64,000 nt of DNA from a virus (IMGVR_UViG_3300033049_000020:88465-152464); one strand, 5' to 3'. Shown: positions 2,398-39,863, numbered from the stretch's first letter. Translations and numbers: made by a program. Notes: a model not told the origin generated them from the letters alone.

Positions 2398-2428
2398 TTG
2401 TATTATCCAAATACTTTTCGTATCTTTG
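2398..2428 (+). promoter_or_regulatory. Bacteroidetes-type sigma-A promoter of tRNA operon 1
   Basis: TTG (2398) ... TATCTTTG (2421-2428) matches the -33/-7 TTTG/TAnnTTTG consensus. Confidence 0.8.
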
Positions 2429-2459
2429 TACTATATTTAATAGAAAGACATAAACAGTT

Positions 2460-2528
2460 ATGAGAAACTTTAACGACATATTCGAATTCAACTTTGCCGC
2501 ATTTGCGGAGGAGGATGATTGCATCTAG
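2460..2528 (+). CDS. Attenuator leader peptide MRNFNDIFEFNFAAFAEEDDCI
   Basis: 22-codon ORF (ATG 2460, TAG 2526-2528) between promoter and terminator; 5 Phe, 3 Glu, 3 Ala, 3 Asp codons. Confidence 0.8.
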   Translation: MRNFNDIFEFNFAAFAEEDDCI

Positions 2529-2530
2529 AT

Positions 2531-2604
2531 GCCAAAGGATATGTTGTAAACGAAACTCAATACGATATACAAAACCTTTGGCTAACCAGTCAAAGGTTTT
2601 TTTT
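2531..2604 (+). terminator. Attenuator: antiterminator overlapping an intrinsic terminator
   Basis: Terminator AAAACCTTTGGCT-AACC-AGTCAAAGGTTTTTTTT (2571-2604); competing helix GCCAAAGG (2531-38)/CCTTTGGC (2575-82) extended by TATGTTGTA/TACGATATA. Confidence 0.8.
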
Positions 2605-3276: not shown

Positions 3277-3312
3277 CGCGGTTCGAAACTGGTAGGTCGC
3301 ACCAAAACATAC

Positions 3313-4176: not shown

Positions 4177-4250
4177 TGCAATTGGGTGCGCAACTGGGCT
4201 TTCACCCCAGCTACATTGTTAGAGAGTGGGTTCGATTCCCACACGCATGA
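4168..4250 (+). tRNA. tRNA-Glu(TTC), long variable region
   Basis: CGTGCGT/ACGCATG; CTGGG-CTTTCAC-CCCAG; overlaps the HNH stop codon. Confidence 0.75.
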
Positions 4251-4444
4251 CTATACAACCTTGTGTCTATATGACTTCGAGGGTTCGAATCCCTTCGGCA
4301 CTACATTATTGGTGTTCCAAATTGACCTAAAATTGAGTGTTTTGGAACACCAATAACCAGCCAAAACTACCTGTTTTAGGGTACATTTGGCTGGTTATAG
4401 AACGCGGAATGTACTTAAATGTGGTAGATTCCGAGAAATATCAC

Positions 4445-4517
4445 CGCCCGTTGGTCTATCGGTTAGGACGTCTGGTTTTCAACCAGAAGGTGATGGGTTC
4501 AATTCCCATACGGGTGA
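4445..4517 (+). tRNA. tRNA-Glu(TTC)
   Basis: CGCCCGT/ACGGGTG; TCTGG-TTTTCAA-CCAGA. Confidence 0.85.
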
Positions 4518-4519
4518 CC

Positions 4520-4543
4520 TTGACAATCTGGAAAGACAGATAA
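4520..4543 (+). repeat. 24-nt inter-tRNA repeat TTGACAATCTGGAAAGACAGATAA (second copy 5909-5932)
   Basis: Exact repeat; boxA-like TTGACA followed by the hairpin ATCTG-GAAAGA-CAGAT. Confidence 0.7.
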
Positions 4544-4547
4544 TTAT

Positions 4548-4624
4548 GGGGGATGGGACTGCTTTGGAGTGGTCACCTCACTTGCAATGAGGAAATCAGA
4601 TGGGTTCGAATCCCATATCCTCCA
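4548..4624 (+). tRNA. tRNA-Ala(TGC)
   Basis: G3:U70 pair; CCTCA-CTTGCAA-TGAGG. Confidence 0.85.
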
Positions 4625-4689
4625 CTCAATGTGGGACTTTGATTTACTTTTTCTCCACTTTGCGTATATTTATAATAAAGACTAAATAA

Positions 4690-5469
4690 ATGGCTAAGTG
4701 TAAGAATATTGAGTGTAAAAATAATACAGAAGGTAAACGAGTTTATTGTTCGTTACAGTGTAGGAACTATTATGTTAACAAATATATTAGGGACTACAAT
4801 AAAAATAGCAAGGGGCTTGCCAAAGACGCTAAGAAAGTTTATGAGGACAACCCTAAATATTGCTTAAACCCTAATTGCGGAGAGAAGATAACATATAAGA
4901 AAAGAAGGAACCAATATTGTAATAGCTCATGTCAGGCGTCTGTTACGGGTGTAGGTAGAATTGTTAGCGAAAGTACTAGGGAAAAGCATAGATTAAGTAG
5001 GTTAAAACAAATTGGTGATTACAAAAAGGTTGATTGTAAATGGTGTGGTTCAGAACTATTAGTTATGAATAGAAGACTATATTGTGATTCAGAATGTAGA
5101 AGAAAATATAATCGTAAGAATATGGATGAGTTCTTAATCTACAAAGCTGACACAAAATTCGGTTTTAATTTGGGTGATTATCCTAAAGAATTTAATTTTG
5201 GGCTGATAGAGGAACACGGTTGGTACTCACCAACCAATTCAAGAAAGCCTAATATTGGTGGTATAAGTAGAGACCACATGTTATCAGTTAGAGAAGGGTT
5301 TAATAGTGGGATAGACCCAAAATTATTGAGTCATCCAGCCAATTGTAAATTGATGATTCATGGTGATAATATTAGTAAGAATAAGAAATCTAGTATAACA
5401 GAAGAAGAATTAAAGGAAAGGATTAAAGAATGGAATAAGAAATATGGGGCTATGGTGACAACTGGCTAA
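4690..5469 (+). CDS. HNH-like homing endonuclease with Cys-rich repeats
   Basis: Repeated C..C...YC...C motifs; C-terminal SRDH...HPANCKLM...NISK. Confidence 0.7.
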   Translation: MAKCKNIECKNNTEGKRVYCSLQCRNYYVNKYIRDYNKNSKGLAKDAKKVYEDNPKYCLNPNCGEKITYKKRRNQYCNSSCQASVTGVGRIVSESTREKHRLSRLKQIGDYKKVDCKWCGSELLVMNRRLYCDSECRRKYNRKNMDEFLIYKADTKFGFNLGDYPKEFNFGLIEEHGWYSPTNSRKPNIGGISRDHMLSVREGFNSGIDPKLLSHPANCKLMIHGDNISKNKKSSITEEELKERIKEWNKKYGAMVTTG

Positions 5470-5519
5470 CACGTTGCTTTTGCAAGGCAGAGATGGGGTA
5501 TCGTACACCCCTAGCTCCA
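5446..5519 (+). tRNA. tRNA-Ala(TGC), atypical T loop
   Basis: GGGGCTA/TAGCTCC with G3:U70; loop TTTGCAA; T loop ATCGTAC. Confidence 0.75.
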
Positions 5520-5544
5520 CTTATTAACTTAAAAATGAAGTAAA

Positions 5545-5814
5545 ATGAGACTTACAGAGAAAAGAGAAATGCTTATGAAATTGGGTGAGAACCTAATGAG
5601 TAAAGGTGGTAAGCTAACACTTAACTTCACCAACGGTAGTATGAGGTATACGGAGCTTATAGCTTCTGAACAGTATCACTATCAAAGTGACAAACGATAT
5701 GTCGAAATATCGGCTATGGTTCATTTCAGTGAACCAAACGTCTACAGGGTAATACCTATAGGCACTAATACAATTAGTTTTGTACTGGAAACACTTCTGA
5801 GTAACTCCAAGTAA
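5545..5814 (+). CDS. Hypothetical protein
   Basis: ORF between tRNAs. Confidence 0.55.
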   Translation: MRLTEKREMLMKLGENLMSKGGKLTLNFTNGSMRYTELIASEQYHYQSDKRYVEISAMVHFSEPNVYRVIPIGTNTISFVLETLLSNSK

Positions 5815-5833
5815 CCGCTTGGCATCAGTAATT

Positions 5834-5905
5834 GGTCTTGAAGCACAATGGCTGTGCAACTCGTTGTCTGCGAGAAAGTTGCGAGTTCGAATCTCGTCAG
5901 GACCG
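5834..5905 (+). tRNA. tRNA-Asp(GTC)
   Basis: GGTCTTG/CAGGACC, G73; loop TTGTCTG. Confidence 0.8.
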
Positions 5906-5934
5906 CCTTTGACAATCTGGAAAGACAGATAAAT

Positions 5935-6017
5935 GGATATGGCGCATAACGGCTGGTGTACCTGACTGTCACTCAGGTGTGTGTAACACGTAGTGGGTTC
6001 GACTCCCATCATATCTG
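5935..6017 (+). tRNA. tRNA-Asp(GTC), long variable arm
   Basis: GGATATG/CATATCT; CCTGA-CTGTCAC-TCAGG. Confidence 0.8.
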
Positions 6018-6053
6018 CCCTTGACTTTTTGGTACTTAGCCATATTTATATGT

Positions 6054-6695
6054 ATGAGGAAACCAAAAACGATACATTACCTTTACAAGACTACTTGTAA
6101 AGTAACAAATAGGTACTATGTAGGGATGCATAGTACCAACGACTTAGAAGACGGTTATATGGGTTCTGGAAGAAGGTTACGAGCCTCAATCAGGAAACAT
6201 GGTGAAGATAACCATACCAAAGAGATATTGGAGTTCTTTGATGATAGAGGACGACTGATAGAAGCAGAGAAGGAATCTATTACCTTAGACATGATTGATG
6301 ATAAGGATTGTATGAATCTGATGGGAGGTGGAACAGGTGGTTTCATCAGCGAAGACCAACAGAGGCATCGTTCAACGATTGCAGTGGAGAAGAGAGAAAA
6401 GAAGAGAGAGGACGACCCAGAGTGGGATAAAGAGTATAGACAAGCTCAATCCCTATCATTGATGAAGCAATATGAGAGTGGTAAGCGAGTATCCAAGCTC
6501 CCAAACTGGGAAGGTAGGAAACATTCAGAAATTACTAAAGAGAAGATGAGGGAGACTAAGAAGGGACAAGGCTCTGGCGAAACTAACTCTCAATACGGTA
6601 CTTGTTGGATAACCAAAGATGGTTCCAACAAGAAGATTAAGAAACAACTTCTTGATTCATTCCTTACTGAAGGATGGGTTAAAGGTAGAAAATAA
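6054..6695 (+). CDS. GIY-YIG (Seg-like) homing endonuclease with NUMOD3-like motif
   Basis: YLYKTT...YYVGMH...YMGSG; GRKHSEITKEKM. Confidence 0.85.
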   Translation: MRKPKTIHYLYKTTCKVTNRYYVGMHSTNDLEDGYMGSGRRLRASIRKHGEDNHTKEILEFFDDRGRLIEAEKESITLDMIDDKDCMNLMGGGTGGFISEDQQRHRSTIAVEKREKKREDDPEWDKEYRQAQSLSLMKQYESGKRVSKLPNWEGRKHSEITKEKMRETKKGQGSGETNSQYGTCWITKDGSNKKIKKQLLDSFLTEGWVKGRK

Positions 6696-6742
6696 TTTGG
6701 ATAGGTCGAATATTTTACGTATCTTTTACGTATCTTTGTAGG

Positions 6743-7009
6743 ATGAAAAGATTTAAGATAGGCGATACGTTCGTCAATAATGTAGACCATAGTAAGGTTA
6801 GTTCTAAAGGATATGACCATGCAGTTAACTACCTGCCATACACTTCAGAACCAGATGAAAGTTTGGAAACTATTGGTAAAACACAAACGGTTATAGATAT
6901 TGAAGATGGTGATACTATAATCACTGATTTTGTTTTATCATCTGGAGAAACGTACTGGTTTGAAAAGGATTCCTCATACGCAGAAAGTTGTAAAAAAATA
7001 CGAATGTAA
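6743..7009 (+). CDS. Hypothetical protein
   Basis: ORF directly after a TATCTTTG promoter. Confidence 0.6.
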   Translation: MKRFKIGDTFVNNVDHSKVSSKGYDHAVNYLPYTSEPDESLETIGKTQTVIDIEDGDTIITDFVLSSGETYWFEKDSSYAESCKKIRM

Positions 7010-7112
7010 GAGCAAGCTGTCGTGAGACGCTGTATTGGGTTCATTACCCGATAAGTCTACGGTTAAAGGTGGTACCATTGTTAACTTATAGGTGCAATTC
7101 CTATTACATTCG
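7002..7112 (+). ncRNA. Expanded tRNA-like RNA, CAT anticodon
   Basis: GAATGTA/TACATTC acceptor; ATTGGG-TTCATTA-CCCGAT; ATAGG-TGCAATT-CCTAT; oversized D and variable regions. Confidence 0.5.
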
Positions 7113-7203
7113 CTAAGGTTGAATACAGCAAACAAAAATTCCGAGAGATGTGCCCACGGGCACCCTTCCCGACCAAATTCCCGAAAGGGGTCAACCTACA
7201 TTC

Positions 7204-7275
7204 CGTCCTATGGTGTAACGGCTAACATGCTACCCTGTCACGGTGGCGCTAGGGGTTCGATTCCCCTTGGGACGG
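7204..7275 (+). tRNA. tRNA-Asp(GTC)
   Basis: CGTCCTA/TGGGACG, G73; CTACC-CTGTCAC-GGTGG. Confidence 0.85.
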
Positions 7276-7739
7276 CTCTGGAACTTTTGTACCTTAGCTA
7301 TATGAGGAAACAAAATGATGGTGTTTCAAGTAGAAAATAATTTGTAAATGTCAAATAAATTTTGTATCTTTGTATTATGAGTAGATATGAAGTAAGGGTA
7401 ATATGGTACGAGGGTGCCACTCAAACTGAAATAATCACAGGTAACCTAACCATGGGTAATAATTATTATCAGATAGTTGACGAAGATTTTAAGGACTGGT
7501 TCTTCCCAATGGGAAGAACCGTAATTCAAGAACTATGAAAGGATTTATATTTTGTATATGGATGTTTATGGATGTTTATAACACTTGTACTTGTACTTAG
7601 TCTTATAGGTTTGTGGGTGGTATTACCTACCACAACACATTACGTTGAAGGTCCGCCAAACATCATTAGAAGTGACTGGATGATATTAGGTGACAAATTA
7701 CTGGAAGCGGTATTAACGGATAAGAAATAAAACTGACAG

Positions 7740-17212: not shown

Positions 17213-17297
17213 GGCGCAATAGCTCAGTTGGTAGAGCGAGGTTTAAAAATGCTACTTGTAGCGGCCTTGGTCGGTGGTTCGAATCCATCTTGCGCCA
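17213..17297 (+). ncRNA. tRNA-like RNA with aberrant anticodon arm
   Basis: GGCGCAA/TTGCGCC; canonical D and T arms; anticodon region holds an extra GCTAC-TT-GTAGC hairpin. Confidence 0.65.
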
Positions 17298-17302
17298 CAT
17301 AT

Positions 17303-20404: not shown

Positions 20405-20698
20405 ATGGCTAAGAAACCAGTACCATGTATAAAGTGTGGCGAAACTAAAATAGTAATCGGAGATGCAAACGAAAGCGCCTTCAACTATTTTACGGGTAAA
20501 TGTACCAATTGTGGTAATGAAGTATTTGGTGATTGTGGCATATTCCCTGAGATGGATATGATGGTTGGAACGTGGAATGCGTCTAACGACCCAAAGAAGA
20601 TACTTAAGTCTTATAAGAGTACTATTAAAGATTACGAGAAGAAGATTGACGAAGTAAAACAAAAGATAGTTGAACTTGAATTCTGGCATACCAAATGA
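20405..20698 (+). CDS. Zn-ribbon protein
   Basis: CIKC ... CTNC ... WN. Confidence 0.6.
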   Translation: MAKKPVPCIKCGETKIVIGDANESAFNYFTGKCTNCGNEVFGDCGIFPEMDMMVGTWNASNDPKKILKSYKSTIKDYEKKIDEVKQKIVELEFWHTK

Positions 20699-20817
20699 TA
20701 GATATTAAAGACCTAAGAGTAGGAAATCATATTCAACTTCATGAGGTAGATGCTGGTGAAGATAGAAAGGCAACCTTTGATTGGTTGAAGTCAAATCAAT
20801 TGAAAAGGATATGATAA

Positions 20818-21033
20818 ATGGATAAATTAGAGATAGGAACAAGAATAATATTCGTAAAGCTTTTAGATAGCCCAGCCACTGGCGACCACCCAGAATTAGT
20901 TTATGCTTATAAAGGAGACGAAGGAGAGGTAACTGGATACAATAACTTTGAAGGGTATTGGGTTAAAAGAGATAAATGGCCAGCCCCTTTCGGTGCAGAG
21001 ATAGAAACCGAATTCATCGAGTTAAAATTATAA
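20818..21033 (+). CDS. Hypothetical protein
   Basis: Packed ORF. Confidence 0.55.
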   Translation: MDKLEIGTRIIFVKLLDSPATGDHPELVYAYKGDEGEVTGYNNFEGYWVKRDKWPAPFGAEIETEFIELKL

Positions 21034-21084
21034 GACTGAAAATCAGTCACTTAAGAGAAATTTTAAAAATAATTGTACGAACAC

Positions 21085-21115
21085 TTGTTTTATTCAAAAC
21101 TATTTCGTATCTTTG
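21085..21115 (+). promoter_or_regulatory. Bacteroidetes-type promoter of tRNA operon 2
   Basis: TTG ... TATCTTTG (21108-21115); context resembles the promoter at 2398. Confidence 0.8.
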
Positions 21116-21178
21116 TACTATAATTAAAATAAACAAAGAAACTTTGCACTTTTATTAAGTGCGCTATATTTAAAAGAA

Positions 21179-21268
21179 ATGAGAAACTTTACTACGACTT
21201 ATAAAGGGAAACAGTATCCGCAAGGCACAAAGCCAAGCGCACTGAGATTGTCGTATCTTGTTTTCTAA
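21179..21268 (+). CDS. Attenuator leader peptide MRNFTTTYKGKQYPQGTKPSALRLSYLVF
   Basis: 29-codon ORF; same MRNF start as leader 1; residues 5-19 are only T/Y/K/G/Q/P. Confidence 0.8.
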   Translation: MRNFTTTYKGKQYPQGTKPSALRLSYLVF

Positions 21269-21334
21269 CTTTTTAGAATAGAAAAACACATAGATATTGC
21301 GAAAGCCTCAGTGAGAAATCACCGAGGCTTTTTT
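21240..21334 (+). terminator. Attenuator: antiterminator overlapping an intrinsic terminator
   Basis: Terminator AAAGCCTCAGTGA-GAAA-TCACCGAGGCTTTTTT (21302-21334); competing CACTGAG (21240-46)/CTCAGTG (21307-13) with inner TGTTTTCTA/TAGAAAAACA. Confidence 0.8.
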
Positions 21335-21400
21335 GTTGTTTCATATTTTGACAACGTTAAAAATAAAATATGGTTCTTTGACATCGTGGTAATAAATAAA

Positions 21401-21472
21401 TTGAGAAGTAGCTTAAACTACAAAGCTCCATCCGTGAGGGGTGGGGATGGAGGTGTAAACCCTCCTTCTCAA
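21401..21472 (+). pseudogene. Degenerate tRNA-like element, isotype unclear
   Basis: Cloverleaf with TTGAGAA/TTCTCAA and GGAGG-TGTAAAC-CCTCC; collapsed anticodon loop. Confidence 0.4.
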
Positions 21473-21479
21473 CTAATAT

Positions 21480-21558
21480 CTAGGTACTTGAGCAGTTGGT
21501 TGAACTCGCTTGCTTTGGGAGCAAGAGTATTGCGCTGGTTCGAATCCAGCTACCTAGA
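21480..21558 (+). tRNA. tRNA-Pro(TGG)
   Basis: CTAGGTA/TACCTAG; CTTGC-TTTGGGA-GCAAG. Confidence 0.85.
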
Positions 21559-21569
21559 CTTTTTAATCT

Positions 21570-21663
21570 CTAGTAATGTGCGAGTGGATTAAGCAACTGG
21601 CCTTGGAAACCAGTGAGGACTTCAAGAGGTTGTCTTCCGTAGGTTCGAATCCTACTTACTAGA
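21570..21663 (+). tRNA. tRNA-Pro(TGG), long variable arm
   Basis: CTAGTAA/TTACTAG; loop CTTGGAA; GTAGG-TTCGAAT-CCTAC. Confidence 0.75.
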
Positions 21664-21784
21664 AATGACTAAGTTAACTACTTCCACGTAGTAGTCATTG
21701 GAAACAGGTAATGCTGGCTAAAAGTTAACAAAAAATTCTGGTCACTTTCTCTGACTTGAACATATTTATATAGAAATAGATATT

Positions 21785-22132
21785 ATGGGACAATCAGAGA
21801 AACAACAATTATGGAAGAAGCAACACTACCAAGAGAACAAAGAATTTTATATTAATAAGCAACAAAAGAGGAGGAAAGAAATTAAAGAATTCATTGATTC
21901 CTTTAAAACGGAATGTGATGCATGTTATGAATATGATAAAGCGTGTTTGGACTTTCATCACCTAGATGGAGCTGATAAAGATGCGGCAGTATCTCAAGCA
22001 TTGGTAAATAAATGGGGCAATAAAAGGATTATAACAGAGATAGAAAAATGTGTTGTATTATGTTCTAACTGTCATCGTAAGTTACACGCTTATAATTTAA
22101 CAGTCGAAGAACTTAAAATTAGAATAGCATAA
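21785..22132 (+). CDS. HNH endonuclease
   Basis: CDAC...LDFHH...KCVVLCSNCHRKLH; same family as 2860 and 47356. Confidence 0.85.
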   Translation: MGQSEKQQLWKKQHYQENKEFYINKQQKRRKEIKEFIDSFKTECDACYEYDKACLDFHHLDGADKDAAVSQALVNKWGNKRIITEIEKCVVLCSNCHRKLHAYNLTVEELKIRIA

Positions 22133-22184
22133 TAATATACGGCAATTAGTTGTCGTATTTGCCGCAGAAAATGCGGCAAATAAT

Positions 22185-22259
22185 CGGGGGGTTCCGCAGA
22201 TGGATATACGGACCTGCTTTGGAAGCAGGTGTTCGTGGGTTCGAATCCCACTCTCCCGA
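22185..22259 (+). tRNA. tRNA-Pro(TGG)
   Basis: CGGGGGG/TCTCCCG; CCTGC-TTTGGAA-GCAGG. Confidence 0.85.
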
Positions 22260-22326
22260 CTAAAGGATGATTACAGCAAACAAAAACAATTTGACTCTTA
22301 ATCAAAAAAAATTCATCCTGTTATAT

Positions 22327-22412
22327 TGAGCGATATGCAAACTGGCAAGCAAACAGGTTTTGAACCTGTCGTGACGAAAGTCCAATTGTAGGTTCGAACC
22401 CTACTCGCTCAA
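22327..22412 (+). tRNA. tRNA-Gln(TTG), long variable arm
   Basis: TGAGCGA/TCGCTCA; ACAGG-TTTTGAA-CCTGT. Confidence 0.8.
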
Positions 22413-22467
22413 CCGTTTACTTTTCTGTACTTTTTAAGTACATTATACAATAACAAAAAATGATACT

Positions 22468-22713
22468 ATGGAGAATATAGAGAAATTAATAACTGAATAT
22501 GAAACCAAATATGAAGAAGGTTTCACCGATGATGAAATCAAAAACATATTAGAGAATTATCCCAACATTAACATGGATAAGTTTAATGGTGCAATGATGG
22601 GAAATACGTGTGCAATGAGAGATGGGTTACTAGTAATGTATCCTTGTGATGTAAGAGCAGCATTGTATTGTGGAATGGAGAATCGAGATTTAAATATACA
22701 GGAATGGGATTAA
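22468..22713 (+). CDS. Hypothetical protein
   Basis: ORF between tRNAs. Confidence 0.6.
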   Translation: MENIEKLITEYETKYEEGFTDDEIKNILENYPNINMDKFNGAMMGNTCAMRDGLLVMYPCDVRAALYCGMENRDLNIQEWD

Positions 22714-22721
22714 ACGTATAT

Positions 22722-22792
22722 TGCCTTGTCGTCTAGCGGCAGGACCCTCCCCTTTGAAGGGAGTGACGGTGGTTCGAATCCATCCGAGGCAA
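22722..22792 (+). tRNA. tRNA-Gln(TTG)
   Basis: TGCCTTG/CGAGGCA; CTCCC-CTTTGAA-GGGAG. Confidence 0.85.
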
Positions 22793-22819
22793 CCCTTAAC
22801 TTTTTGGTCGCTTTACTCC

Positions 22820-22890
22820 AATTATAAAAATTGTACATGACCTAATTATAAAAATCGTACATGACCTAATTATAGATATTGTACGTCACT
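22820..22890. repeat. 24-bp tandem repeat, about 3 copies (AATTATAAAAATYGTACATGACCT)
   Basis: Two near-exact copies and one degenerate copy, no spacers. Confidence 0.75.
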
Positions 22891-22910
22891 TTAGAGATGA
22901 ATAAAAATAT

Positions 22911-22996
22911 CGGTTAGATGGTAAATTGGCTAAATCAGCAGACTGTAAATCTGTCGTCTTTCGACTATGTAGGTTCGATTCCTACCTGACCGACCA
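22911..22996 (+). tRNA. tRNA-Tyr(GTA)
   Basis: CGGTTAG/CTGACCG-ACCA; GCAGA-CTGTAAA-TCTGT; variable arm. Confidence 0.9.
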
Positions 22997-23039
22997 AGCT
23001 AAGTTCACACTATAATCGCAAAGAAGAGGAAGTGTAATT

Positions 23040-23111
23040 GGGAATATGCTCAGGGTAAGTCAGACGGATTGTAACCCCGAACTGCATGGAGTTCGAGTCT
23101 CCTCATTCCCA
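23040..23111 (+). tRNA. tRNA-Tyr(GTA), short-arm, atypical
   Basis: GGGAAT/ATTCCC; loop TTGTAAC; weak D arm. Confidence 0.6.
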
Positions 23112-23224
23112 CAGCTTAGTTGGTACTATACTCGGTTGACGAGGAAGTACATTGGTTGAAGTTATAATAAACCACCCTTCTTGAAAGGGAACCCATAAAG
23201 ATGGGTTATAAATAAAACTTAGAT

Positions 23225-23307
23225 GCTTGATTAGTATAACGGAGGGGAAACCCGTATTACCTTGGCTTTGTAACCCAAAAATATCAGTTCGATTCTGATA
23301 TCAAGCT
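23225..23307 (+). tRNA. tRNA-Thr(TGT) with a hairpin inserted in the D loop
   Basis: GCTTGAT/ATCAAGC (C2:G71); loop TTTGTAA. Confidence 0.7.
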
Positions 23308-23391
23308 CTACATAGTGATTATTTGTGGTTGATGTATAACAATTAATCATTATCACTATACTTTTTGATGATAATGCTTATATTTATTATT

Positions 23392-23892
23392 ATGGAAGCT
23401 AAAATATGTAAAAATTGTGGTGAGGAAATCAAAGGTAGAGGCATTAAGTTCTGCTCTCAAACCTGTAATGGTATCTACAACAATAAAGATAGGATTAAGA
23501 AGGTAGAACGAGAATGTAATAATTGTGGTGTAGTAACAACTAATAAATTTTATTGTACGCCAGAGTGTAATCAAAAACATAAAACTCAATTAAGGTTTGA
23601 CCAGATTGAGAATGGTGACATTACATTAGATTTTAGGCAGTATAAAAAATACCTAATTAATAAACATGGTGCTAAATGCATGAGATGTGGTTGGTGTGAG
23701 GTTAATCCGACATCTGGTAATGTGCCTATAGAGTTGGAACATAAAGATGGTGACTCAAGTAATAATTCATTAGGTAATCTTGAATTACTTTGTCCTAACC
23801 ACCATTCACTAACACCAACGTATAAAGCGTTGAATAAAGGTAACGGTAGACATAAAAGGATGGAACGTTACAAAGAAGGTAAAAGTTATTAA
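23392..23892 (+). CDS. HNH homing endonuclease
   Basis: ELEHKDGDSSNNSLGNLELLCPNHHS. Confidence 0.9.
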   Translation: MEAKICKNCGEEIKGRGIKFCSQTCNGIYNNKDRIKKVERECNNCGVVTTNKFYCTPECNQKHKTQLRFDQIENGDITLDFRQYKKYLINKHGAKCMRCGWCEVNPTSGNVPIELEHKDGDSSNNSLGNLELLCPNHHSLTPTYKALNKGNGRHKRMERYKEGKSY

Positions 23893-23902
23893 ATTAATAG
23901 TT

Positions 23903-24106
23903 ATGGAAGAGACAATAATCGATGGTAGAGAAGCCATCATAACAAGAGGAGAGGGGTTAGTGGTCATAGCATCCAAAGGTAAAGGTGGTGCTGTAATATC
24001 TGATGAGAATGAAGATGTTGCTAAGGAGAAGTTTTCTGAAGCGATGAATTTGGCTGAGTCAGTTTACAAACTAATCTTTTTTGAAAAACATGGGAAATTC
24101 CCATAA
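23903..24106 (+). CDS. Hypothetical protein
   Basis: ORF. Confidence 0.55.
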   Translation: MEETIIDGREAIITRGEGLVVIASKGKGGAVISDENEDVAKEKFSEAMNLAESVYKLIFFEKHGKFP

Positions 24107-24112
24107 ACATAA

Positions 24113-24186
24113 GCGAGTAACGCATAAGTGGTGGTGCGCCAGCCTTCCAAGCTGGAATAGAGTCGGTTCGATACCGTCTACTCGCT
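24113..24186 (+). tRNA. tRNA-Gly(TCC)
   Basis: GCGAGTA/TACTCGC, U73; CCAGC-CTTCCAA-GCTGG. Confidence 0.85.
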
Positions 24187-24226
24187 CACGGACATATCGG
24201 ACTGTCCAATAAAATGTCCGATAAAT

Positions 24227-24297
24227 GCAGTATAGGTGTTACGGTAGCACATCTGGCTTCCACCCAGAAGGCGAGATTTCGACTATCTCATACTGCA
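24227..24297 (+). tRNA. tRNA-Gly(TCC)
   Basis: GCAGTAT/ATACTGC; TCTGG-CTTCCAC-CCAGA. Confidence 0.8.
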
Positions 24298-24442
24298 CAA
24301 AAGTAAGTATAGTAGCAATAACACAAAGCGCTTGTGTTATGTACCTTGCAGTGGGTGACCACAAGGAGAAGTACGTTTCGAGTAATTAACGGGATGGAAT
24401 TGGGCTAATCAGGCGAATAAACTTCTCTTACTTTTAATAATT

Positions 24443-24517
24443 CCATCGGTAGCAAATGTGGATAAGCAACTGGTTTTTACCCAGAATGGAAGACGGGTTC
24501 GACTCCCTCTTGGGGCA
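24443..24517 (+). pseudogene. Chimeric tRNA-Lys(TTT) with mispaired acceptor stem
   Basis: First 25 nt identical to tRNA 24557; 3' strand TTGGGGC does not match CCATCGG. Confidence 0.6.
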
Positions 24518-24556
24518 CTGGATTAGTTAGCACTATACTCGAAAGGAAGTGCAAAA

Positions 24557-24630
24557 CCATCGGTAGCAAATGTGGATAAGCGTTCGGTTTTTACCCGAAG
24601 TAGGAGTGGGTTCGACACCCACCCGATGGA
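24557..24630 (+). tRNA. tRNA-Lys(TTT)
   Basis: CCATCGG/CCGATGG; TTCGG-TTTTTAC-CCGAA. Confidence 0.8.
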
Positions 24631-24635
24631 CAAAT

Positions 24636-24707
24636 GGCTCTATAGTATAAGCGGCAATACACTAGTCTTGTAAACTTGAGTTCTGGCATCGATTGCCAGT
24701 AGAGCCT
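24636..24707 (+). tRNA. tRNA-Thr(TGT)
   Basis: GGCTCTA/TAGAGCC; loop CTTGTAA; atypical T loop ATCGATT. Confidence 0.7.
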
Positions 24708-24713
24708 CAATAT

Positions 24714-24783
24714 GCGATTATAGTTTAATTCAGAATACCAACCATCTAGGTTGGAGATGTTGGTGGAAACCCAGCTAATCGCT
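24714..24783 (+). pseudogene. Gly-like tRNA body with non-canonical anticodon loop
   Basis: GCGATTA/TAATCGC-T; CCAACC-ATCTA-GGTTGG lacks U33. Confidence 0.45.
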
Positions 24784-24788
24784 CATAT

Positions 24789-24876
24789 GACTCCATAGTT
24801 CAATTGGTTATCCCGAAAGGGTGTAGAATAGTTGCCTTTTAAGCTTCGGATTTGGGTTCGAGTCCCAATGGAGTCA
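24789..24876 (+). tRNA. tRNA-Lys(TTT) with D-loop hairpin insert
   Basis: GACTCCA/TGGAGTC; loop CTTTTAA; insert ATCCCGAAAGGGT. Confidence 0.7.
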
Positions 24877-24989
24877 CACAAGTTTGTACGTTTGTGCTGT
24901 AAAACGTACTTATCATGATGAATTCATGTGCAACTGGGTAACAGGTTAACCACTCTCCTGTCCTAATGTTAAAGACTAAAAGTGGATAT

Positions 24990-25064
24990 GCGAATGTAGC
25001 TCAGTTGGTTTAGAGCGTCTGGTTGCCAATCAGAAGGTCGTGAGTTCGAATCTCATCTTTCGCT
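24990..25064 (+). tRNA. tRNA-Gly(GCC)
   Basis: GCGAA/TTCGC-T; TCTGG-TTGCCAA-TCAGA. Confidence 0.9.
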
Positions 25065-25103
25065 CTCTTGACTTTTTGGTACTTCCCACCTCCCCAACAA
25101 TAA

Positions 25104-25177
25104 CCATCGATAGCAAATGCGGATATGCACTTGACTCTTAATCAAGACGGGAAAGGGTTCGACTCCCTTACGGTGGA
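25104..25177 (+). tRNA. tRNA-Lys(CTT)
   Basis: CCATCG/CGGTGG; CTTGA-CTCTTAA-TCAAG. Confidence 0.8.
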
Positions 25178-25200
25178 CTAACATTAAAATCAACATTATT

Positions 25201-25875
25201 ATGGAAGATGAATCGTATTACGTCTCTGACGTAACAGGTAATAAGTACCCCAAAGATGAGTATCATAATCATGGTTGGGGTGGGATTAAGTACAATTTTA
25301 AGGATTTACCTCATGATGAATATCCTTATTCAGTAGTAGAACCAAACATCAAAAGCGATGAGGAGTTACTGGTTGAATATATGCGAGAGGTCTTTAGTAT
25401 CCTTAAGGAACGAGAAGTGCCGAGTAAGTATGATAAAGAGTATGATGCTAGACTATACAAAGCTCTGGCTAATTGGAACATTCACGTAATACCTCACGCC
25501 TTTAAGGAGCGTGGATTGAGAGAAGAGGATGTTGCGATAATATTACCGTCAGCACGATTAAGAGAGCTGGCAGAATACGTTGAATTCACAAATTTAATTG
25601 ATTTTACCACGGGAAAGAAGGTATTGGGCGAAATGCTTGATAGTAATGAAGACGCTTGGACGGTAATGGAAAGAATGGATTTATTATACAAGGCCGAAGG
25701 TTCGGCAGTAGAAGATGCTGTTGACGCAGTATTAGCTAAATATCCAGATAAAATTATTGCCTACAAAGGTGGAAAGAAAGGTTTATTTGGAATGTTTGTT
25801 GGTGAGATAATGCGAAGCATTAAGGGTGTTAATGGGAAAGAAGTAAGTGATATATTAACCGAAAAATTAAAATAA
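25201..25875 (+). CDS. GatB/YqeY C-terminal (tRNA-binding) domain protein
   Basis: VDAVLAKYPDKIIAYKGGKKGLFGMFVGEIMR resembles the GatB tail. Confidence 0.75.
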   Translation: MEDESYYVSDVTGNKYPKDEYHNHGWGGIKYNFKDLPHDEYPYSVVEPNIKSDEELLVEYMREVFSILKEREVPSKYDKEYDARLYKALANWNIHVIPHAFKERGLREEDVAIILPSARLRELAEYVEFTNLIDFTTGKKVLGEMLDSNEDAWTVMERMDLLYKAEGSAVEDAVDAVLAKYPDKIIAYKGGKKGLFGMFVGEIMRSIKGVNGKEVSDILTEKLK

Positions 25876-26171
25876 TGATGGAACGAATAGATTTTCCAAC
25901 ATCTGGAATGCACATCAACGACTATTTAACGTCAGTTGAACGTGAAGTATCTGAATACTACTCAGATTCTATTCGTAGAATTTGGGTAAGCTATGCTAGA
26001 ATCAGCAAAGGACGTGGAGAGTATAGGCTACAAGTGACTGTATTTCCAAATGGAGTTGACTCCCCATATAGGATTATCACTGGAGAGGTTGATACTCAAT
26101 TGACTCTAGAGGGAGTCTGCGAAATGATTGATGGAGCACTTAAGGCCATCAATAATGCCTCCATGGTATAA
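25875..26171 (+). CDS. Hypothetical protein
   Basis: Coupled ORF. Confidence 0.55.
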   Translation: MMERIDFPTSGMHINDYLTSVEREVSEYYSDSIRRIWVSYARISKGRGEYRLQVTVFPNGVDSPYRIITGEVDTQLTLEGVCEMIDGALKAINNASMV

Positions 26172-26228
26172 AGGTTATTACGTGCCCTTGGTAAGGGTAA
26201 AATTCCGATTCAATTTCGGGTGGAGGCT
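26157..26228 (+). tRNA. tRNA-Thr(GGT)
   Basis: GCCTCCA/TGGAGGC; TGCCC-TTGGTAA-GGGTA. Confidence 0.8.
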
Positions 26229-26278
26229 CCCTGAACTTTTTATTTGTACATGTCAAATATTATGCGTATCTTTGTCTT

Positions 26279-26959
26279 ATGGATAAGTATGTAAAGGTAA
26301 AGTTCAATGGTAAGGTAACACCTTATTTACTTTACGTAGATGAGAATTACGTATGGACAGATGAGCAGGTAAAGTCGGAAAACGCTAAAACAGTTGAATT
26401 AGCTAAAATGGCTTTCCTTGACCACGGAGTACCATTAATACCTTTGGATTCAATATCAGATGTCTTGAGCCTTAAAGCGGCCTACACAACACCAACCAAA
26501 GATGTAGTATTACTCATTTATGAGGGTGGAAATTTCATGACACTATTACCATCTATGGAGATAGTAAAGGAACAATACTCTGAGTATTACCCAATAGAAG
26601 AAGGTTTTGCGGTTATATGTGAAAATGACCCATTCGATAAAAACGTGAGTATGACGGACTACATATTTGAGAGGATGTGCAAGGATAACTCAATAGTTGG
26701 GTATCATTATCTGTTCAGCTTCAGGAATAGATTAGAATCGGAATTGATTAAAGCATTTTCTGAAGCACCAGCGATACTATTCAATAGTTCGTATGTGGAT
26801 GTGGATTGGTGGGAATTAATGCTGAGGTGTATAATAAAGTCTAAAACCAAGGCTAAAGTCATCGGTAAGAAAAAAACTCACCCAAAAATGGTGGAGAGAC
26901 AGGATAAGTATCTTGAATTAGCCAATAAGTTTGGGGTTGAAATATCGATGATGCTATAA
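26279..26959 (+). CDS. Hypothetical protein
   Basis: ORF after promoter. Confidence 0.7.
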   Translation: MDKYVKVKFNGKVTPYLLYVDENYVWTDEQVKSENAKTVELAKMAFLDHGVPLIPLDSISDVLSLKAAYTTPTKDVVLLIYEGGNFMTLLPSMEIVKEQYSEYYPIEEGFAVICENDPFDKNVSMTDYIFERMCKDNSIVGYHYLFSFRNRLESELIKAFSEAPAILFNSSYVDVDWWELMLRCIIKSKTKAKVIGKKKTHPKMVERQDKYLELANKFGVEISMML

Positions 26960-26998
26960 TTTGCATATGTCAAATATTTTATGTATCTTTGTTCTATT

Positions 26999-27520
26999 AT
27001 GAGTAAAGAAGACAAATTCAATCCAGAGAGACTATTACGTAGTCTAGGCTTCACTAGTGTAAGTAAGGATGAAGACGGAAATTCTAAACCTAGCGATTGG
27101 GGTAGTAGTCGTTTCTACAATCATCCTCTAGGTTATCGTGTAGATATCACTTACGATGACAATACGACTAGGAAGCCTGATAATGTCCTTTACTACATGT
27201 TCAGGGATAACCAACATAGAGAAGTGGTTGAGGATTACAATAAATCATACGGACAGCATAGAACGTCAACGGAGTTTGCTAACGCTCTACACGACTTCAA
27301 TAAAGAACTCAAAGAATTTTACAAAGACAAATTAGAGGCTAATCCACTATTAAAAAAGTATGTAACAACCTTCGAATACGTAGGCTGCTCAGGATTTCAC
27401 CCTTCTCACTTTGGAACAAGGACTAAAGGTCATTTAAGTATGGACTGGTGGTTAGAAACATTCAAAAACTTAGAGTGGGATGTGGACATGATGAAAGAAG
27501 CAAAAGAAAAATCAGAATAA
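26999..27520 (+). CDS. Hypothetical protein
   Basis: ATG after TATCTTTG promoter. Confidence 0.7.
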   Translation: MSKEDKFNPERLLRSLGFTSVSKDEDGNSKPSDWGSSRFYNHPLGYRVDITYDDNTTRKPDNVLYYMFRDNQHREVVEDYNKSYGQHRTSTEFANALHDFNKELKEFYKDKLEANPLLKKYVTTFEYVGCSGFHPSHFGTRTKGHLSMDWWLETFKNLEWDVDMMKEAKEKSE

Positions 27521-38741: not shown

Positions 38742-39863
38742 GTGGAAACATATAAAGATTTAAAAGGGAAAAGGGTCTTGTGTGCGATGTCGGGAGGATT
38801 AGATTCCACCATGACAGCGTTACTATTGCACGAGGCTGGATGTGACTGTATAGGTATCACGATGAAAACTTGGGACTATGCATCTTCTGGAGTTGCTGAC
38901 AGTAACTCCAAGACCACAGGTTGTTGCTCGTTGGATGACATCAACGATGCTAGACAACTATGTGTCGATTACGATATCCCTCATAACATCATTGATATAC
39001 GTGAAACTTTCACCGACTCAGTGGTTGATAACTTCATTGATGAATATATGGCTGGTAGGACACCCAATCCTTGTATAGTATGTAATACTCACATTAAGTG
39101 GGGTGCGCTATTAAATTATGCCGACCAATTAGGGTGCGACTATATTGCGACTGGCCATTATGCTCGTATCCGTTACGAAAATGACAGATACGTTATCTCA
39201 AGTGGTATTGATGTAACTAAAGACCAAAGCTATGTGCTATATGGGTTGAGCCAAGAGGTGTTAGCCCGTACTCTAGTTCCTATGGGTGAATACCTTAAAA
39301 GTGATATCAGGAACATGGCTAAAGAGCGTGGCTATGACGCAATTGCTACTAAATCGGAGAGTTACGAGATTTGTTTTGTACCTATTGGACACTTTAGTGA
39401 TTTCTTAAAATTTAAGAGACCAGAGTTATTGCACTTAGATGGTGGGGAAATCAGACTTAAAGATGAGACCGTAATAGGTACGCATCATGGGTATCCTTTC
39501 TACACCGTAGGACAAAGAAGAGGACTTGGGTTATCGACTGGCAATGCGGTATACGTTAATGACATAGACCCTAAGAATAATATTGTCTACGTTGGTGGTG
39601 AAGATGAGTTGAATAAGACTGTGGTATATGTCAAAGATTTTAACTACGTCAAATACCCGTCTATTGAGGATGGATTCGAATGTGTTGTTAAAATACGTTA
39701 TAAGGATAGAGGTTCCCATGCTAGGTTATACAATGCTGAAGATGGGTTAATTAGGGTAGAGTTCCTAAAAGAGGTGAAAGCCCCTACGTTAGGTCAGAGT
39801 GCAGTAGCCGTTGATTATGATGGTGACCTGATTGGTGGTGGTATAATGATTAAGCGTATGTAA
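38742..39863 (+). CDS. mnmA: tRNA-specific 2-thiouridylase MnmA
   Basis: AMSGGLDS, GRTPNPC..CN..IK, ATGHYA, KDQSY, GQRRGLG. Confidence 0.95.
   Translation: METYKDLKGKRVLCAMSGGLDSTMTALLLHEAGCDCIGITMKTWDYASSGVADSNSKTTGCCSLDDINDARQLCVDYDIPHNIIDIRETFTDSVVDNFIDEYMAGRTPNPCIVCNTHIKWGALLNYADQLGCDYIATGHYARIRYENDRYVISSGIDVTKDQSYVLYGLSQEVLARTLVPMGEYLKSDIRNMAKERGYDAIATKSESYEICFVPIGHFSDFLKFKRPELLHLDGGEIRLKDETVIGTHHGYPFYTVGQRRGLGLSTGNAVYVNDIDPKNNIVYVGGEDELNKTVVYVKDFNYVKYPSIEDGFECVVKIRYKDRGSHARLYNAEDGLIRVEFLKEVKAPTLGQSAVAVDYDGDLIGGGIMIKRM

Follow-up and report, generated by a model that had tools for sequence, protein, structure and literature searches.

The closest described counterparts of the locus analysed here are the enterobacterial leader-peptide attenuators thrL (Thr/Ile), ilvL of ilvGMEDA (Ile/Leu/Val), trpL, hisL and pheL, with which it shares a short ORF near the promoter in which control codons are clustered, an intrinsic terminator downstream of it, and an alternative helix that joins the 3' region of the ORF to the terminator 5' arm. 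A further likeness is that the position of the ribosome picks the helix (modelled in the present case) and that the multivalent members sense more than one amino acid. Attenuation of a translation component that serves the sensed codons has a parallel in E. coli pheM/pheST (Phe codons, phenylalanyl-tRNA synthetase), and T-box riboswitches likewise tie terminator read-through to the state of a specific tRNA, the controlled genes serving its amino acid. To our knowledge, all described leader-peptide attenuators control biosynthesis, transport or synthetase genes. The tRNA arrays of T4, T5 and vibriophages, which resemble the present locus in being large phage tRNA sets interspersed with homing endonucleases, are a supplement or counter-measure to host tRNA loss and are described as transcribed from ordinary early or middle promoters; we know of no isotype-matched leader for arrays of this type.

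Here, we analyse a window of 64,000 nucleotides from a 152-kb phage genome and conclude that it quite probably contains a multivalent, ribosome-mediated leader-peptide transcription attenuator that gates the phage's own tRNA operon and senses the supply of charged tRNAs.

Anatomy of the leader and the tRNA block

The region 5' of the tRNA genes comprises the following features:

21084..21115, + strand: Bacteroidota-type promoter, with CTTG (-33-like), a 20-nt spacer and TATCTTTG (-7, 21108-21115)
21143..21164, + strand: 5'-UTR hairpin GCACTT / AAGTGC, from folding, 5' of the leader start
21179..21268, + strand: leader ORF, 29 codons, ATG to TAA
21191..21235, + strand: control codons 5-19, TTTYKGKQYPQGTKP, encoding Thr, Tyr, Lys, Gly, Gln and Pro only
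21193..21198, + strand: segment 1, TACGAC, with its partner GTCGTA at 21250-21255
21240..21255, + strand: segment 2, CACTGAG (21240-46) and GTCGTA (21250-55)
21248..21301, + strand: long hairpin, from folding, between segment 2 and the terminator
21305..21334, + strand: intrinsic terminator, stem GCCTCAGTGA / TCACCGAGGC, loop GAAA, T run
21373..21390, + strand: boxA-like site GTTCTTTGACATCGTGGT, core GTTCTTTGACATC at 21374
21401..21473, + strand: tRNA-shaped element lacking a 7-nt anticodon loop, cloverleaf consensus, just 5' of the first tRNA

This inventory bears out the original prediction, which had placed here a promoter at 21108, a 29-codon ORF at 21179-21268, TACGAC/GTCGTA and CACTGAG/CTCAGTG helices, a poly-U terminator (present at 21305-21334) and a boxA 5' of the tRNAs, for which a candidate boxA-like site was found. 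The Bacteroidota promoter consensus, known from Bacteroides promoters, is -33 TTTG / -7 TAnnTTTG; as in housekeeping promoters of this phylum, where a TTG-containing element precedes the -7 element by about 20 nt, TATCTTTG at 21108 is preceded by CTTG 20 nt upstream. In the whole genome, the -7 motif TATCTTTGTA has 27 matches on the + strand against a single one on the - strand, most of them 3-60 nt 5' of an ATG, and the same promoter motif heads all four putatively attenuated tRNA blocks. The leader ORF starts approximately 60 nt 3' of the -7 element and lies between the promoter and the tRNA genes. The 5'-UTR hairpin is kept in two relatives (L112 and L115), and in leaders of the His/Trp/Ser type, this position is taken by a hairpin with another sequence. 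The tRNA-shaped element shows compensatory changes at 7 of 21 pairs in four copies and did not match the Rfam tRNA model.

The block downstream, which would be the regulated part, contains 16 tRNA genes along with ORFs that resemble homing endonucleases and one for a GatB/YqeY-domain protein:

21480..21559, + strand: tRNA-Pro (UGG); ARAGORN, Rfam
21569..21664, + strand: tRNA-Pro (UGG) with a 21-nt variable arm; ARAGORN, alignment
22185..22260, + strand: tRNA-Pro (UGG); ARAGORN, Rfam
22327..22414, + strand: tRNA-Gln (UUG), long form; ARAGORN, Rfam
22721..22795, + strand: tRNA-Gln (UUG); ARAGORN, Rfam
22911..22996, + strand: tRNA-Tyr (GUA); ARAGORN, Rfam
23225..23307, + strand: tRNA-Thr (UGU) with a C.C mismatch at positions 31-39; Rfam 46 bits, loop read by hand
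24113..24187, + strand: tRNA-Gly (UCC); ARAGORN, Rfam
24227..24298, + strand: tRNA-Gly (UCC); ARAGORN, Rfam
24557..24631, + strand: tRNA-Lys (UUU); ARAGORN, Rfam
24636..24708, + strand: tRNA-Thr (UGU); ARAGORN, Rfam
24714..24783, + strand: odd tRNA-like gene with anticodon loop CAUCUAG; Rfam 39.9 bits, fold
24789..24876, + strand: tRNA, probably Lys (UUU); Rfam 49.9 bits, loop read by hand
24990..25065, + strand: tRNA-Gly (GCC); ARAGORN, Rfam
25104..25178, + strand: tRNA-Lys (CUU); ARAGORN, Rfam
25201..25875, + strand: GatB/YqeY-domain protein inside the block; Pfam PF02637, E 4e-20
26157..26230, + strand: tRNA-Thr (GGU), last tRNA of the block; ARAGORN, Rfam

By default, ARAGORN called Pro x3, Gln x2, Tyr x1, Gly x3, Lys x2 and Thr x2, and Rfam added three genes, at 23225, 24789 and 24714. 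The first of these has orthologues in L112 and L113 (90% identity), and its syntenic place in L115 and L155 is occupied by Thr(tgt); in the second, the D region is enlarged and the anticodon stem contains two U.U pairs, and its relaxed ARAGORN call differs. The third reads as UCU with A33, so that its isotype is not assignable; it may be Arg-like and the sole member of the block outside the six-isotype set, a possibility that counts against the attenuator reading. Thus, the expectation that the block would hold exactly six isotypes stands for every confidently assignable tRNA, with the exception of this unassignable gene and slightly different counts: Pro x3, Gln x2, Gly x3 and, with Rfam, Thr x3 agree with those predicted, whereas the candidates for a second Tyr (23040) and another Lys (24443) are weak or degenerate. 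Homologues of the GatB/YqeY-domain protein are present in the syntenic blocks of relatives.

Correspondence between leaders and tRNA isotypes

The fifteen consecutive control codons, an element of the prediction that is confirmed here, together sample all nine anticodons of the tRNA block. This run of Thr, Tyr, Lys, Gly, Gln and Pro codons is the longest in any of the six frames of the 152-kb genome (the runner-up has 11), where these residues make up 26% of all six-frame codons, and it is also the longest of its set among the 565 small ORFs of 20-35 codons that formed our comparison set. The out-of-set residues, at codons 2-4 and in the 3' tail, count against an attenuator.

The same succession of promoter, ORF of 22-31 codons, terminator and tRNAs is found at four genome positions (55983, 80539, 90885 and 109572), and the four isotype sets, namely, H,W,S,N,R,I,M, C,V,L, F,E,A,D and P,Q,Y,T,G,K, partition the amino acids, such that the units together cover all 20. 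When leader residues are tabulated against sets (4x4), each leader is enriched for its own block (chi-square p 1e-9), and for each set, the longest run in any of the 565 small ORFs is that of the corresponding leader. The Cys/Val/Leu leader is looser, with 12/30 residues in the set, which again counts against the attenuator reading. Another of the four units lies within the window:

2421..2596, + strand: second putative attenuator (F/E/A/D), with promoter, leader, antiterminator and terminator

Its -7 element (2421-2428) is followed by a 22-codon leader rich in Phe, Glu, Ala and Asp (2460-2528), an antiterminator strand GCCAAAGG 2 nt past the stop codon, and a terminator (2575-2596), and the unit heads genes for Phe x2, Glu x2, Ala x2 and Asp x3 (2722-7276).

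The leader is also conserved, as had been anticipated: its reading frame is open in relatives, with an unchanged number of codons in L112 and L115 and with 32-33 codons in L155 and L141, and the changes in codons 6-19 are synonymous third-position changes or within-set K/Q swaps. In L115, a -1/+1 indel pair restores the frame, and in L141, the sequence has drifted, yet a 13-residue run remains in the set. We infer from the sequences that the leader is translated.

That leader composition tracks the downstream isotypes, an expectation of the original prediction, holds not only for the four units of this genome but also in unrelated phages and in a cultured one. Among eight non-homologous units from five phages, the true assignment of leaders to arrays is the best of 40,320 permutations (summed z 20.8 vs 11.6 for the best full mismatch). 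One leader whose first 33 residues include every one of the 20 amino acids (P about 4e-4) heads an array of 19/20 isotypes, as called by ARAGORN with default settings, Ile being uncalled there but called in the sister locus L137. Three units of this kind are present in the cultured Cellulophaga phage phi4:1 (chi-square p 4e-7), and the leaders of this phage match their blocks down to the anticodon level, given that the leader of the Arg(ACG) block has a CGT codon and that of the Arg(UCU) block has AGA. Being cultured, phi4:1 offers material for testing the design.

The correspondence between leaders and blocks is real and far beyond chance, which bears on the idea that the short ORFs encode trans-acting micropeptides or are untranslated, the match arising by chance or from shared base composition. 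Small ORFs are indeed common in AT-rich DNA, as the 565 counted here illustrate, and only about half of each leader is in its set, but the run lengths, the 4x4 table and the permutation test (1 of 40,320) argue against this explanation, as do the synonymous and within-set substitutions and the fixed place of the ORF, flanked on one side by a promoter and on the other by a terminator, the arm of which co-varies with the 3' part of the ORF. This already disfavoured alternative appears very improbable.

Alternative helices and the proposed switch

The leader folds better than all 200 of 200 shuffled sequences (z -3.8), and folding, which had been suggested as a check, yields the alternative helices. 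The segment 1:2 helix is kept in five homologues, with 85% of cells paired, and has a single compensatory pair (L141), which is not significant and counts against an attenuator. CACTGAG (21240-46) pairs with CTCAGTG (21307-13) of the terminator 5' arm and is the best partner of that arm (-11.7 kcal/mol); at the place of segment 2, L155 has CTGGGC opposite GCCCAG. In the fold, the long hairpin is stacked upon the antiterminator helix and carries the stop codon TAA (21266-68) close to its apex. The terminator, with its stem at 21305-21328 and T run to 21334, forms in the minimum-energy fold and has a counterpart at the equivalent position in all relatives, where the stems differ in sequence. In 10 of 12 units, the upstream region that binds the terminator 5' arm most strongly is the one from the same unit, and none of 100,000 random assignments is as good as the cognate pairing; the present unit is among these, its own partner outranking the other 11. 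In each case, the strand that pairs with the arm falls within the final third of the ORF or directly 3' of the stop codon. The antiterminator strand thus co-varies with the terminator 5' arm across units.

Alternatively, the terminator could simply end a short leader transcript, with the tRNAs transcribed from a separate promoter in 21340-21400 and no leader control. Sigma-70-like hexamers are present 3' of the terminator in this strongly conserved stretch, which is almost identical in L112 and L115. However, the host-type motif, for all its 27 uses, is absent from it, and the conserved stretch corresponds to the boxA-like site, which is itself identical in L112 and L115. The 18-mer pattern of this site was found in 43 IMG/VR stretches, about half of the time inside or just 5' of phage tRNA arrays, including between the tRNAs. 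We take its core to resemble the rrn boxA consensus; rrn-type boxA lies downstream of the promoter and is bound by NusB/NusE. Moreover, in the first two units of the genome, the first tRNA begins 8 and 25 nt past the terminator T run, which leaves no room for a promoter, so that these tRNAs can be made only by read-through. A separate promoter would also leave the codon match unexplained, and we regard it as improbable.

For attenuation, the following course of events is proposed. Host RNA polymerase would initiate at the Bacteroidota-type promoter, and a ribosome would translate the 29-codon leader while the polymerase heads for the terminator. When all six charged tRNAs are plentiful, the ribosome would pass segment 2 and reach the stop codon at the apex of the long antiterminator hairpin, melting it, so that the terminator folds and transcription ends at ~21334. 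Were any one of the tRNAs scarce, the ribosome would stall in codons 5-17 and leave segment 2 free to pair with the emerging terminator 5' arm, and the polymerase would read into the tRNA genes, with the boxA-like site probably lending it processivity. Since a gate opened by lack of particular tRNAs would deliver those same tRNAs, the unit would be a self-limiting supply sensor, an OR gate over six isotypes. The phage, a giant marine one, thus probably makes each tRNA block only when ribosomes lack those tRNAs; in nature, the shortage might arise from host anticodon-nuclease defence, a trigger suggested in the original prediction.

Folds in which a ribosome masks part of the leader model how its position might decide between the helices. 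In the F/E/A/D unit, a ribosome on codons 2-20 leaves the 5' arm sequestered (P 0.89), and one on codons 21-23 releases it (P 0.3). In the P/Q/Y/T/G/K unit, the antiterminator is 6-8 kcal/mol better with the ribosome at codons 8-14 than at the stop codon. Two results count against an attenuator: at equilibrium, the terminator state is always stabler than the 7-bp antiterminator in the P/Q/Y/T/G/K and His/Trp/Ser units, and in the former, a ribosome resting on the stop codon leaves segment 2 uncovered. Because of the latter, the P/Q/Y/T/G/K switch would depend on kinetic coupling and melting of the long hairpin, and in these models the three-helix logic is textbook-clean only for the Phe/Glu/Ala/Asp unit. 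Both the direction of the switch and a response of read-through to ribosome stalling are what the models suggest.

In the masking model, any slowdown of the ribosome 5' of segment 2 would give read-through, and ribosome-free truncated transcripts already favour the antiterminator (P 0.63-0.89), so that an untranslated leader may also open the gate. The element could accordingly be a real attenuator that senses general translation capacity or amino-acid starvation, the codon match being a by-product of always-decodable codons. Such a sensor needs no isotype-specific composition, yet the 20 amino acids are divided among the four leaders just as the isotypes are among the blocks, leaders in distant phages match arrays in which the tRNAs have been re-sorted, and in phi4:1 the family of Arg codons found in a leader agrees with the Arg anticodon that its block encodes; we consider this account unlikely. 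The originally predicted multiplexed attenuator-sensor is supported, every computational test proposed for it having come out favourably, and it unites the observed anatomy and repetition of the units, their conserved coding frames, the leader/isotype correspondence and the antiterminator/terminator covariation.

Comparison with described attenuators

A literature search found no published description of leader-peptide attenuation for tRNA genes and none of an isotype-matched leader for phage tRNA arrays, in agreement with the earlier view that the design is undescribed for such arrays. With T-box riboswitches, the difference lies in the sensor: a T-box recognises uncharged tRNA directly, by means of a specifier codon and the T-box sequence, and needs no ribosome, whereas here a translated ORF would do the sensing; no Rfam match to a T-box was found in 20500-27000 at E up to 1. 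The pheM/pheST system is cellular and concerns the synthetase for one amino acid, whereas the phage units are viral and concern tRNA genes. The enterobacterial leaders regulate biosynthetic enzymes and sense one to three isotypes, in contrast to six to twenty for the phage leaders, which belong to a viral element of a Bacteroidota host lineage without sequence homology to them. As the genes that the phage units would regulate are tRNA genes, the sensed species would be the product itself. The downstream genes are mainly tRNA genes rather than genes for amino-acid biosynthesis, transport or synthetases, in which they depart from those of described attenuators.

Attenuator-like units and tRNA blocks in the genome

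The window covers bases 88465–152464 of an IMG/VR virus record. This 152-kb record, 43% complete according to CheckV, has a GC content of 36.5% and contains 52 tRNA matches (Rfam), all on the plus strand, as well as a tmRNA and two CUA suppressor tRNAs. A promoter-like motif, TTG-N20-TATCTTTGTA, which fits the Bacteroidota −33/−7 promoter type, is present 27 times on the plus strand and once on the minus strand of the genome, mostly just 5′ of start codons; a 15-mer taken from the promoter and searched against IMG/VR gave only single, scattered hits and revealed no relatives. Among cultured phages, those of Maribacter, Cellulophaga, and Flavobacterium provide the best matches of a conserved A1-like protein, the relatives originate from marine metagenomes, and the source is a large marine phage with Flavobacteriia-like hosts. 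The start codons of many genes, such as those at genome positions 86422, 95829, 97830, and 108162, are located 3 to 6 nt past the −7 element, a distance that suggests leaderless or near-leaderless mRNAs. The window also encodes several auxiliary proteins:

38742–39863, QueC-like 7-deazaguanine synthesis gene
53767–55350, nicotinamide phosphoribosyltransferase
59287–60255, ribose-phosphate pyrophosphokinase
60921–62501, T5 A1-like "DNA transfer" protein

The promoter, leader ORF, terminator, boxA-like site, and tRNA block of the main unit were all found where the original prediction had placed them. Window positions of these parts and of the ORFs inside the block:

21108–21115, −7 element of the promoter
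21179–21268, leader ORF of 29 codons
21305–21328, terminator stem, followed by a T run to 21334
21373–21390, boxA-like site
21480, start of the first tRNA of the block
21785–22132, 23365–23892, and 25201–25875, ORFs resembling homing endonucleases (a weak HNH_3 match in one of them) and a protein with a GatB/YqeY domain, between tRNAs of the block

The leader fold is more stable than those of all 200 shuffled sequences (z −3.8), with the terminator included in the minimum-energy structure. Leader codons 5 to 19 specify only Thr, Tyr, Lys, Gly, Gln, and Pro, residues that make up 26% of the six-frame codons, and this in-set run of 15 residues is the longest in any of the six frames of the genome, the next longest being 11. 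For all nine anticodons of the block, at least one matching codon occurs among these 15. Between 21480 and 26230, the tRNAs that can be assigned with confidence are Pro ×3, Gln ×2, Tyr, Thr ×3, Gly ×3, and Lys ×3, so that all of them belong to the six isotypes originally listed; the list had counted two tRNA-Tyr genes instead of one, and the gene at 24714–24783 is unassignable. Relaxed ARAGORN searches allowing introns produced many spurious calls, and their results were used only where Rfam or synteny agreed. The homing-endonuclease-like ORFs and the GatB/YqeY-domain protein would be co-regulated with the tRNAs of the block.

The same promoter, combined with an ORF of 22 to 31 codons and an intrinsic terminator, also heads three other blocks of tRNA genes (genome 55983, 80539, and 90885, the last of these inside the window at 2421–2596). 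For genes detected by Rfam only, anticodons were taken from their folds; these genes include Trp, a second Ser, three noncanonical Ile-like, two noncanonical Arg-like, and two Ala with G3:U70. Counting these fold-read genes, the four blocks divide the 20 amino acids cleanly among themselves.

Isotypes of the four tRNA blocks
Block 1: H, W, S, N, R, I, M
Block 2: C, V, L
Block 3: F, E, A, D
Block 4 (main unit): P, Q, Y, T, G, K

In the first leader, the opening 14 codons call for all seven isotypes of its block and no others. In a 4 × 4 table of leader residues versus block sets, 59 of 107 fall on the diagonal (chi-square p 1e-9), and every leader holds the longest run for its own set among the 565 small ORFs of the genome. 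The five noncanonical tRNA-like genes (genome 59554–59945 and 64674–64865, 5′ of the window) have good acceptor and T arms, a rearranged D region, and anticodon loops reading GAU, GAU, and UAU (Ile) and UCG and UCU (Arg), and they fill out the set of isotypes that the first leader predicts. Only 8 and 25 nt separate the terminator T run from the first tRNA in the first two units, and hence their tRNAs can be transcribed only by read-through.

A fifth cluster, consisting of tRNA-Cys and the two CUA (amber suppressor) tRNAs and preceded by the tmRNA (genome 44751–47483, 5′ of the window), has the common promoter without a leader or terminator. Because the genome carries two such suppressors and the F/E/A/D leader ends in TAG, recoding of this codon was considered. 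The gain in frame from TAG read-through is no greater than that from TGA, 17 long ORFs end in TAG, and the sequenced fragment gives no sign of recoding.

Leaders and arrays in other phages

A blastn search of the main-unit region against GenBank phages matched only one tRNA-Pro. The GatB/YqeY-domain protein encoded inside the block retrieved no related loci when used as a query against IMG/VR; in the protein database, it led to three marine contigs (L112, L115, and L116), each with a syntenic block, and the boxA-like 18-mer, used as a pattern, led to further phages. The open frame of the leader, 29 to 33 codons long, is kept in L112, L115, and two other relatives, L155 and L141. Across codons 6 to 19, the four closer sequences differ by third-position synonymous changes or K/Q swaps; in L115, the frame lost through a one-base deletion is regained by a one-base insertion farther on; and in L141, the nucleotides have diverged, yet a run of 13 residues still falls within the same six-letter set. 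The leader is thus conserved, as the original prediction demanded, and this substitution pattern is the one expected if the decoded isotypes are under selection, in which case the ORF would be translated.

A mechanical search for units, defined as a terminator within 260 nt upstream of a tRNA and a short ORF ending within 110 nt before the terminator, found them in phages with differently sorted arrays. When eight leaders without mutual sequence similarity were each scored against the isotype set of each array, the true assignment was the single best of 40,320 permutations, with a summed z of 20.8 compared to 11.6 for the best complete mismatch, bearing out the predicted covariation of leaders and isotypes. 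In one phage, represented by loci L137 and L139, the L139 array comprises 19 of the 20 isotypes under ARAGORN defaults, with Ile, uncalled there, called in the sister locus L137, and all 20 amino acids occur among the first 33 residues of the leader (P about 4e-4 given the composition of the phage proteome).

A cultured example is provided by Cellulophaga phage phi4:1 (NC_021788.1), in which a single array of 23 tRNAs is divided by three units of promoter, short ORF, and terminator, with the leader terminators at about 87186, 88145, and 89920 of that record.

Leaders of phi4:1 (positions in L166, the phi4:1 stretch)
766–834, unit 1, before Pro, Glu, Gln, His, Leu ×2, and Arg(ACG); in-set run of 11 residues
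1726–1809, unit 2, before Ala, Lys, Ile, Gly, Met, Asp, Thr, Val, Arg(UCU), and Met; run of 17
3472–3570, unit 3, before Tyr, Ser, Asn, Trp, Phe, and a Cys-like gene; run of 10

The 3 × 3 table of leaders and blocks gives p 4e-7, and the sole Arg codon, CGT in the first leader and AGA in the second, fits the Arg anticodon of the respective block. The second ORF overlaps, in the same frame, the small "hypothetical protein" gp075, for which no annotation of a role was found and whose GenBank start is a TTG within the promoter motif. The first leader (L166 766) starts 3 to 6 nt after the −7 element, as do the genes with presumed leaderless or near-leaderless mRNAs noted above. Since cultured Cellulophaga phages carry the units, the idea is directly testable.

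RNA structures of the proposed switch and of the arrays

For 12 units, we asked which upstream region pairs best with each terminator 5′ arm. In 10 of the 12, the top-ranking region is that of the unit itself; it comes second in one (behind its own homolog) and fourth in the last, and none of 100,000 random assignments equals the observed pairing. The partner of the arm is found a few codons 3′ of the control codons, either within the final third of the ORF or immediately after its stop. In the His/Trp/Ser family, the partner changes with the terminator (TGGTCAG/CTGACCA, TCAAGG/CCTTGA, and GAATTCGG/CCGAATTC), and the CACTGAG/CTCAGTG pair of the main unit is replaced at the same place in L155 by CTGGGC/GCCCAG. 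The alternative antiterminator and terminator helices originally proposed are present; the proposed protector helix, TACGAC/GTCGTA, is conserved and includes one compensatory pair, but its covariation is not significant.

The effect of a translating ribosome was modeled by masking 28 nt around the A site and folding the transcript up to the terminator loop. In this model, the F/E/A/D unit behaves as a textbook attenuator, the arm being sequestered (P 0.89) with the ribosome on codons 2 to 20 and freed (P 0.3) with the ribosome on the last codons and the stop. In the main unit, segment 2 of the leader (CACTGAG at 21240–21246 and GTCGTA at 21250–21255) is hidden only with the ribosome on codons 18 to 21. 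The stop codon of this unit lies at the apex of a long hairpin stacked on the antiterminator helix, so that a ribosome finishing the ORF must melt the hairpin. In full-length transcripts, the antiterminator state fares 6 to 8 kcal/mol better with the ribosome at codons 8 to 14 than at the stop; at equilibrium, the terminator state is always more stable, and, by analogy with classical attenuators, the decision would have to be kinetic. Overall, equilibrium folding is clear on the direction of the switch for the F/E/A/D and C/V/L units, modest for the main unit, and uninformative for the His/Trp/Ser unit.

The arrays also contain several unusual RNAs. For many isotypes whose variable arm is normally short, namely Pro, Gln, Glu, Asp, Cys, Met, and Asn, a normal tRNA is accompanied by a form of 84 to 96 nt. 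In the 96-nt tRNA-Pro, the extra length is a long variable arm, as judged by alignment; for the other long forms, length was the sole criterion. L115 retains the long versions of Pro and Gln. Directly past the 3′ end of the long tRNA-Pro begins a match to the HDV-like ribozyme family RF02682, with 27.5 bits, less than the gathering score (44), and E 0.003 when 400 nt were searched. An HDV-type ribozyme cleaving its own 5′ end would release the 3′ end of this tRNA.

Unusual RNA elements
Window 21569–21664, 22327–22414, 4168–4251, and 5934–6020, and genome 80756–80842, 60452–60539, and 61689–61775, long tRNA forms
Window 21664–21730, HDV-like ribozyme match
Window 21401–21473, L112 6077–6151, and L115 5293–5367 and 5372–5447, tRNA-shaped element between the boxA-like site and the first tRNA
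Window 24714–24783, tRNA-like gene, Rfam 39.9 bits
Window 17213–17298, tRNA gene with an insertion in or beside the anticodon loop, Rfam 53 bits

The tRNA-shaped element, duplicated in L115, has acceptor, D-like, and T-like stems with compensatory changes and a variable "anticodon" hairpin lacking a 7-nt loop; it may act as a handle for processing or may be a tRNA of very aberrant form. The gene at 24714–24783 has an atypical T loop and the anticodon loop CAUCUAG, which would read as an Arg-like UCU with A33, U at position 33 being universal in tRNAs. AGA is used for both Arg codons of the main-unit leader; a link to this gene is possible but uncertain. The isolated gene at 17213–17298, 4 kb 5′ of the leader, is read by ARAGORN as having either a four-base anticodon or Tyr(GUA) with a 12-nt intron. 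Copies of the 18-mer GTTCTTTGACATCNTGGT lie between the tRNAs of arrays from many phages that otherwise differ (IMG/VR loci L120 to L162), and the sequence resembles a boxA-type signal for antitermination or processing that phage tRNA operons have in common.

Interpretation and comparison with known attenuators

The analysis confirms the original observation, and the same layout recurs in four units of this genome and in several phage lineages. The attenuator interpretation is the best-supported explanation and, in our judgment, probably correct, with the translation of the leader and the direction of the response being the parts that we infer. Discussions of phage tRNA genes usually turn on codon usage or on the replacement of tRNAs that are destroyed in the course of infection. 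In a broader reading, which we consider possible but less likely than not, the units would constitute an inducible countermeasure, each block of replacement tRNAs being switched on selectively when the corresponding host tRNAs are cleaved or depleted by host anticodon nucleases, other tRNA-targeting defenses, or the phage's own host shut-off. The four units would then be independent damage sensors that jointly watch all 20 amino acids and would represent a widespread, unrecognized regulatory class in Bacteroidota phages and beyond.

If true, a leader that senses the very tRNAs encoded behind it would couple tRNA synthesis directly to decoding capacity by feedback, and attenuation, a 50-year-old paradigm, would be widened from amino acid supply to tRNA supply. 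With 6 to 20 isotypes per leader, these would be by far the most multivalent attenuators known. The rule that the leader predicts the array could serve for annotating tRNA operons, for giving aberrant phage tRNAs an isotype, and for inferring the tRNAs that a phage expects to lose.

The device is not a T-box, and there is no Rfam match to a T-box or another known riboswitch. We found no description of leader-peptide control of tRNA genes, phage or cellular, in the full-text literature, coverage of which excludes most subscription journals, so that this is absence of evidence only. Every structural feature of the leader-peptide attenuator class that could be checked here was found, and the proposed working principle is the same as in the multivalent thr and ilv leader-peptide attenuators and the pheST attenuator. 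Unlike these systems, the phage units are viral, belong to Bacteroidota, have a valency of 6 to 20 isotypes per leader, and would control tRNA genes, and because of the latter, signal and product would coincide.
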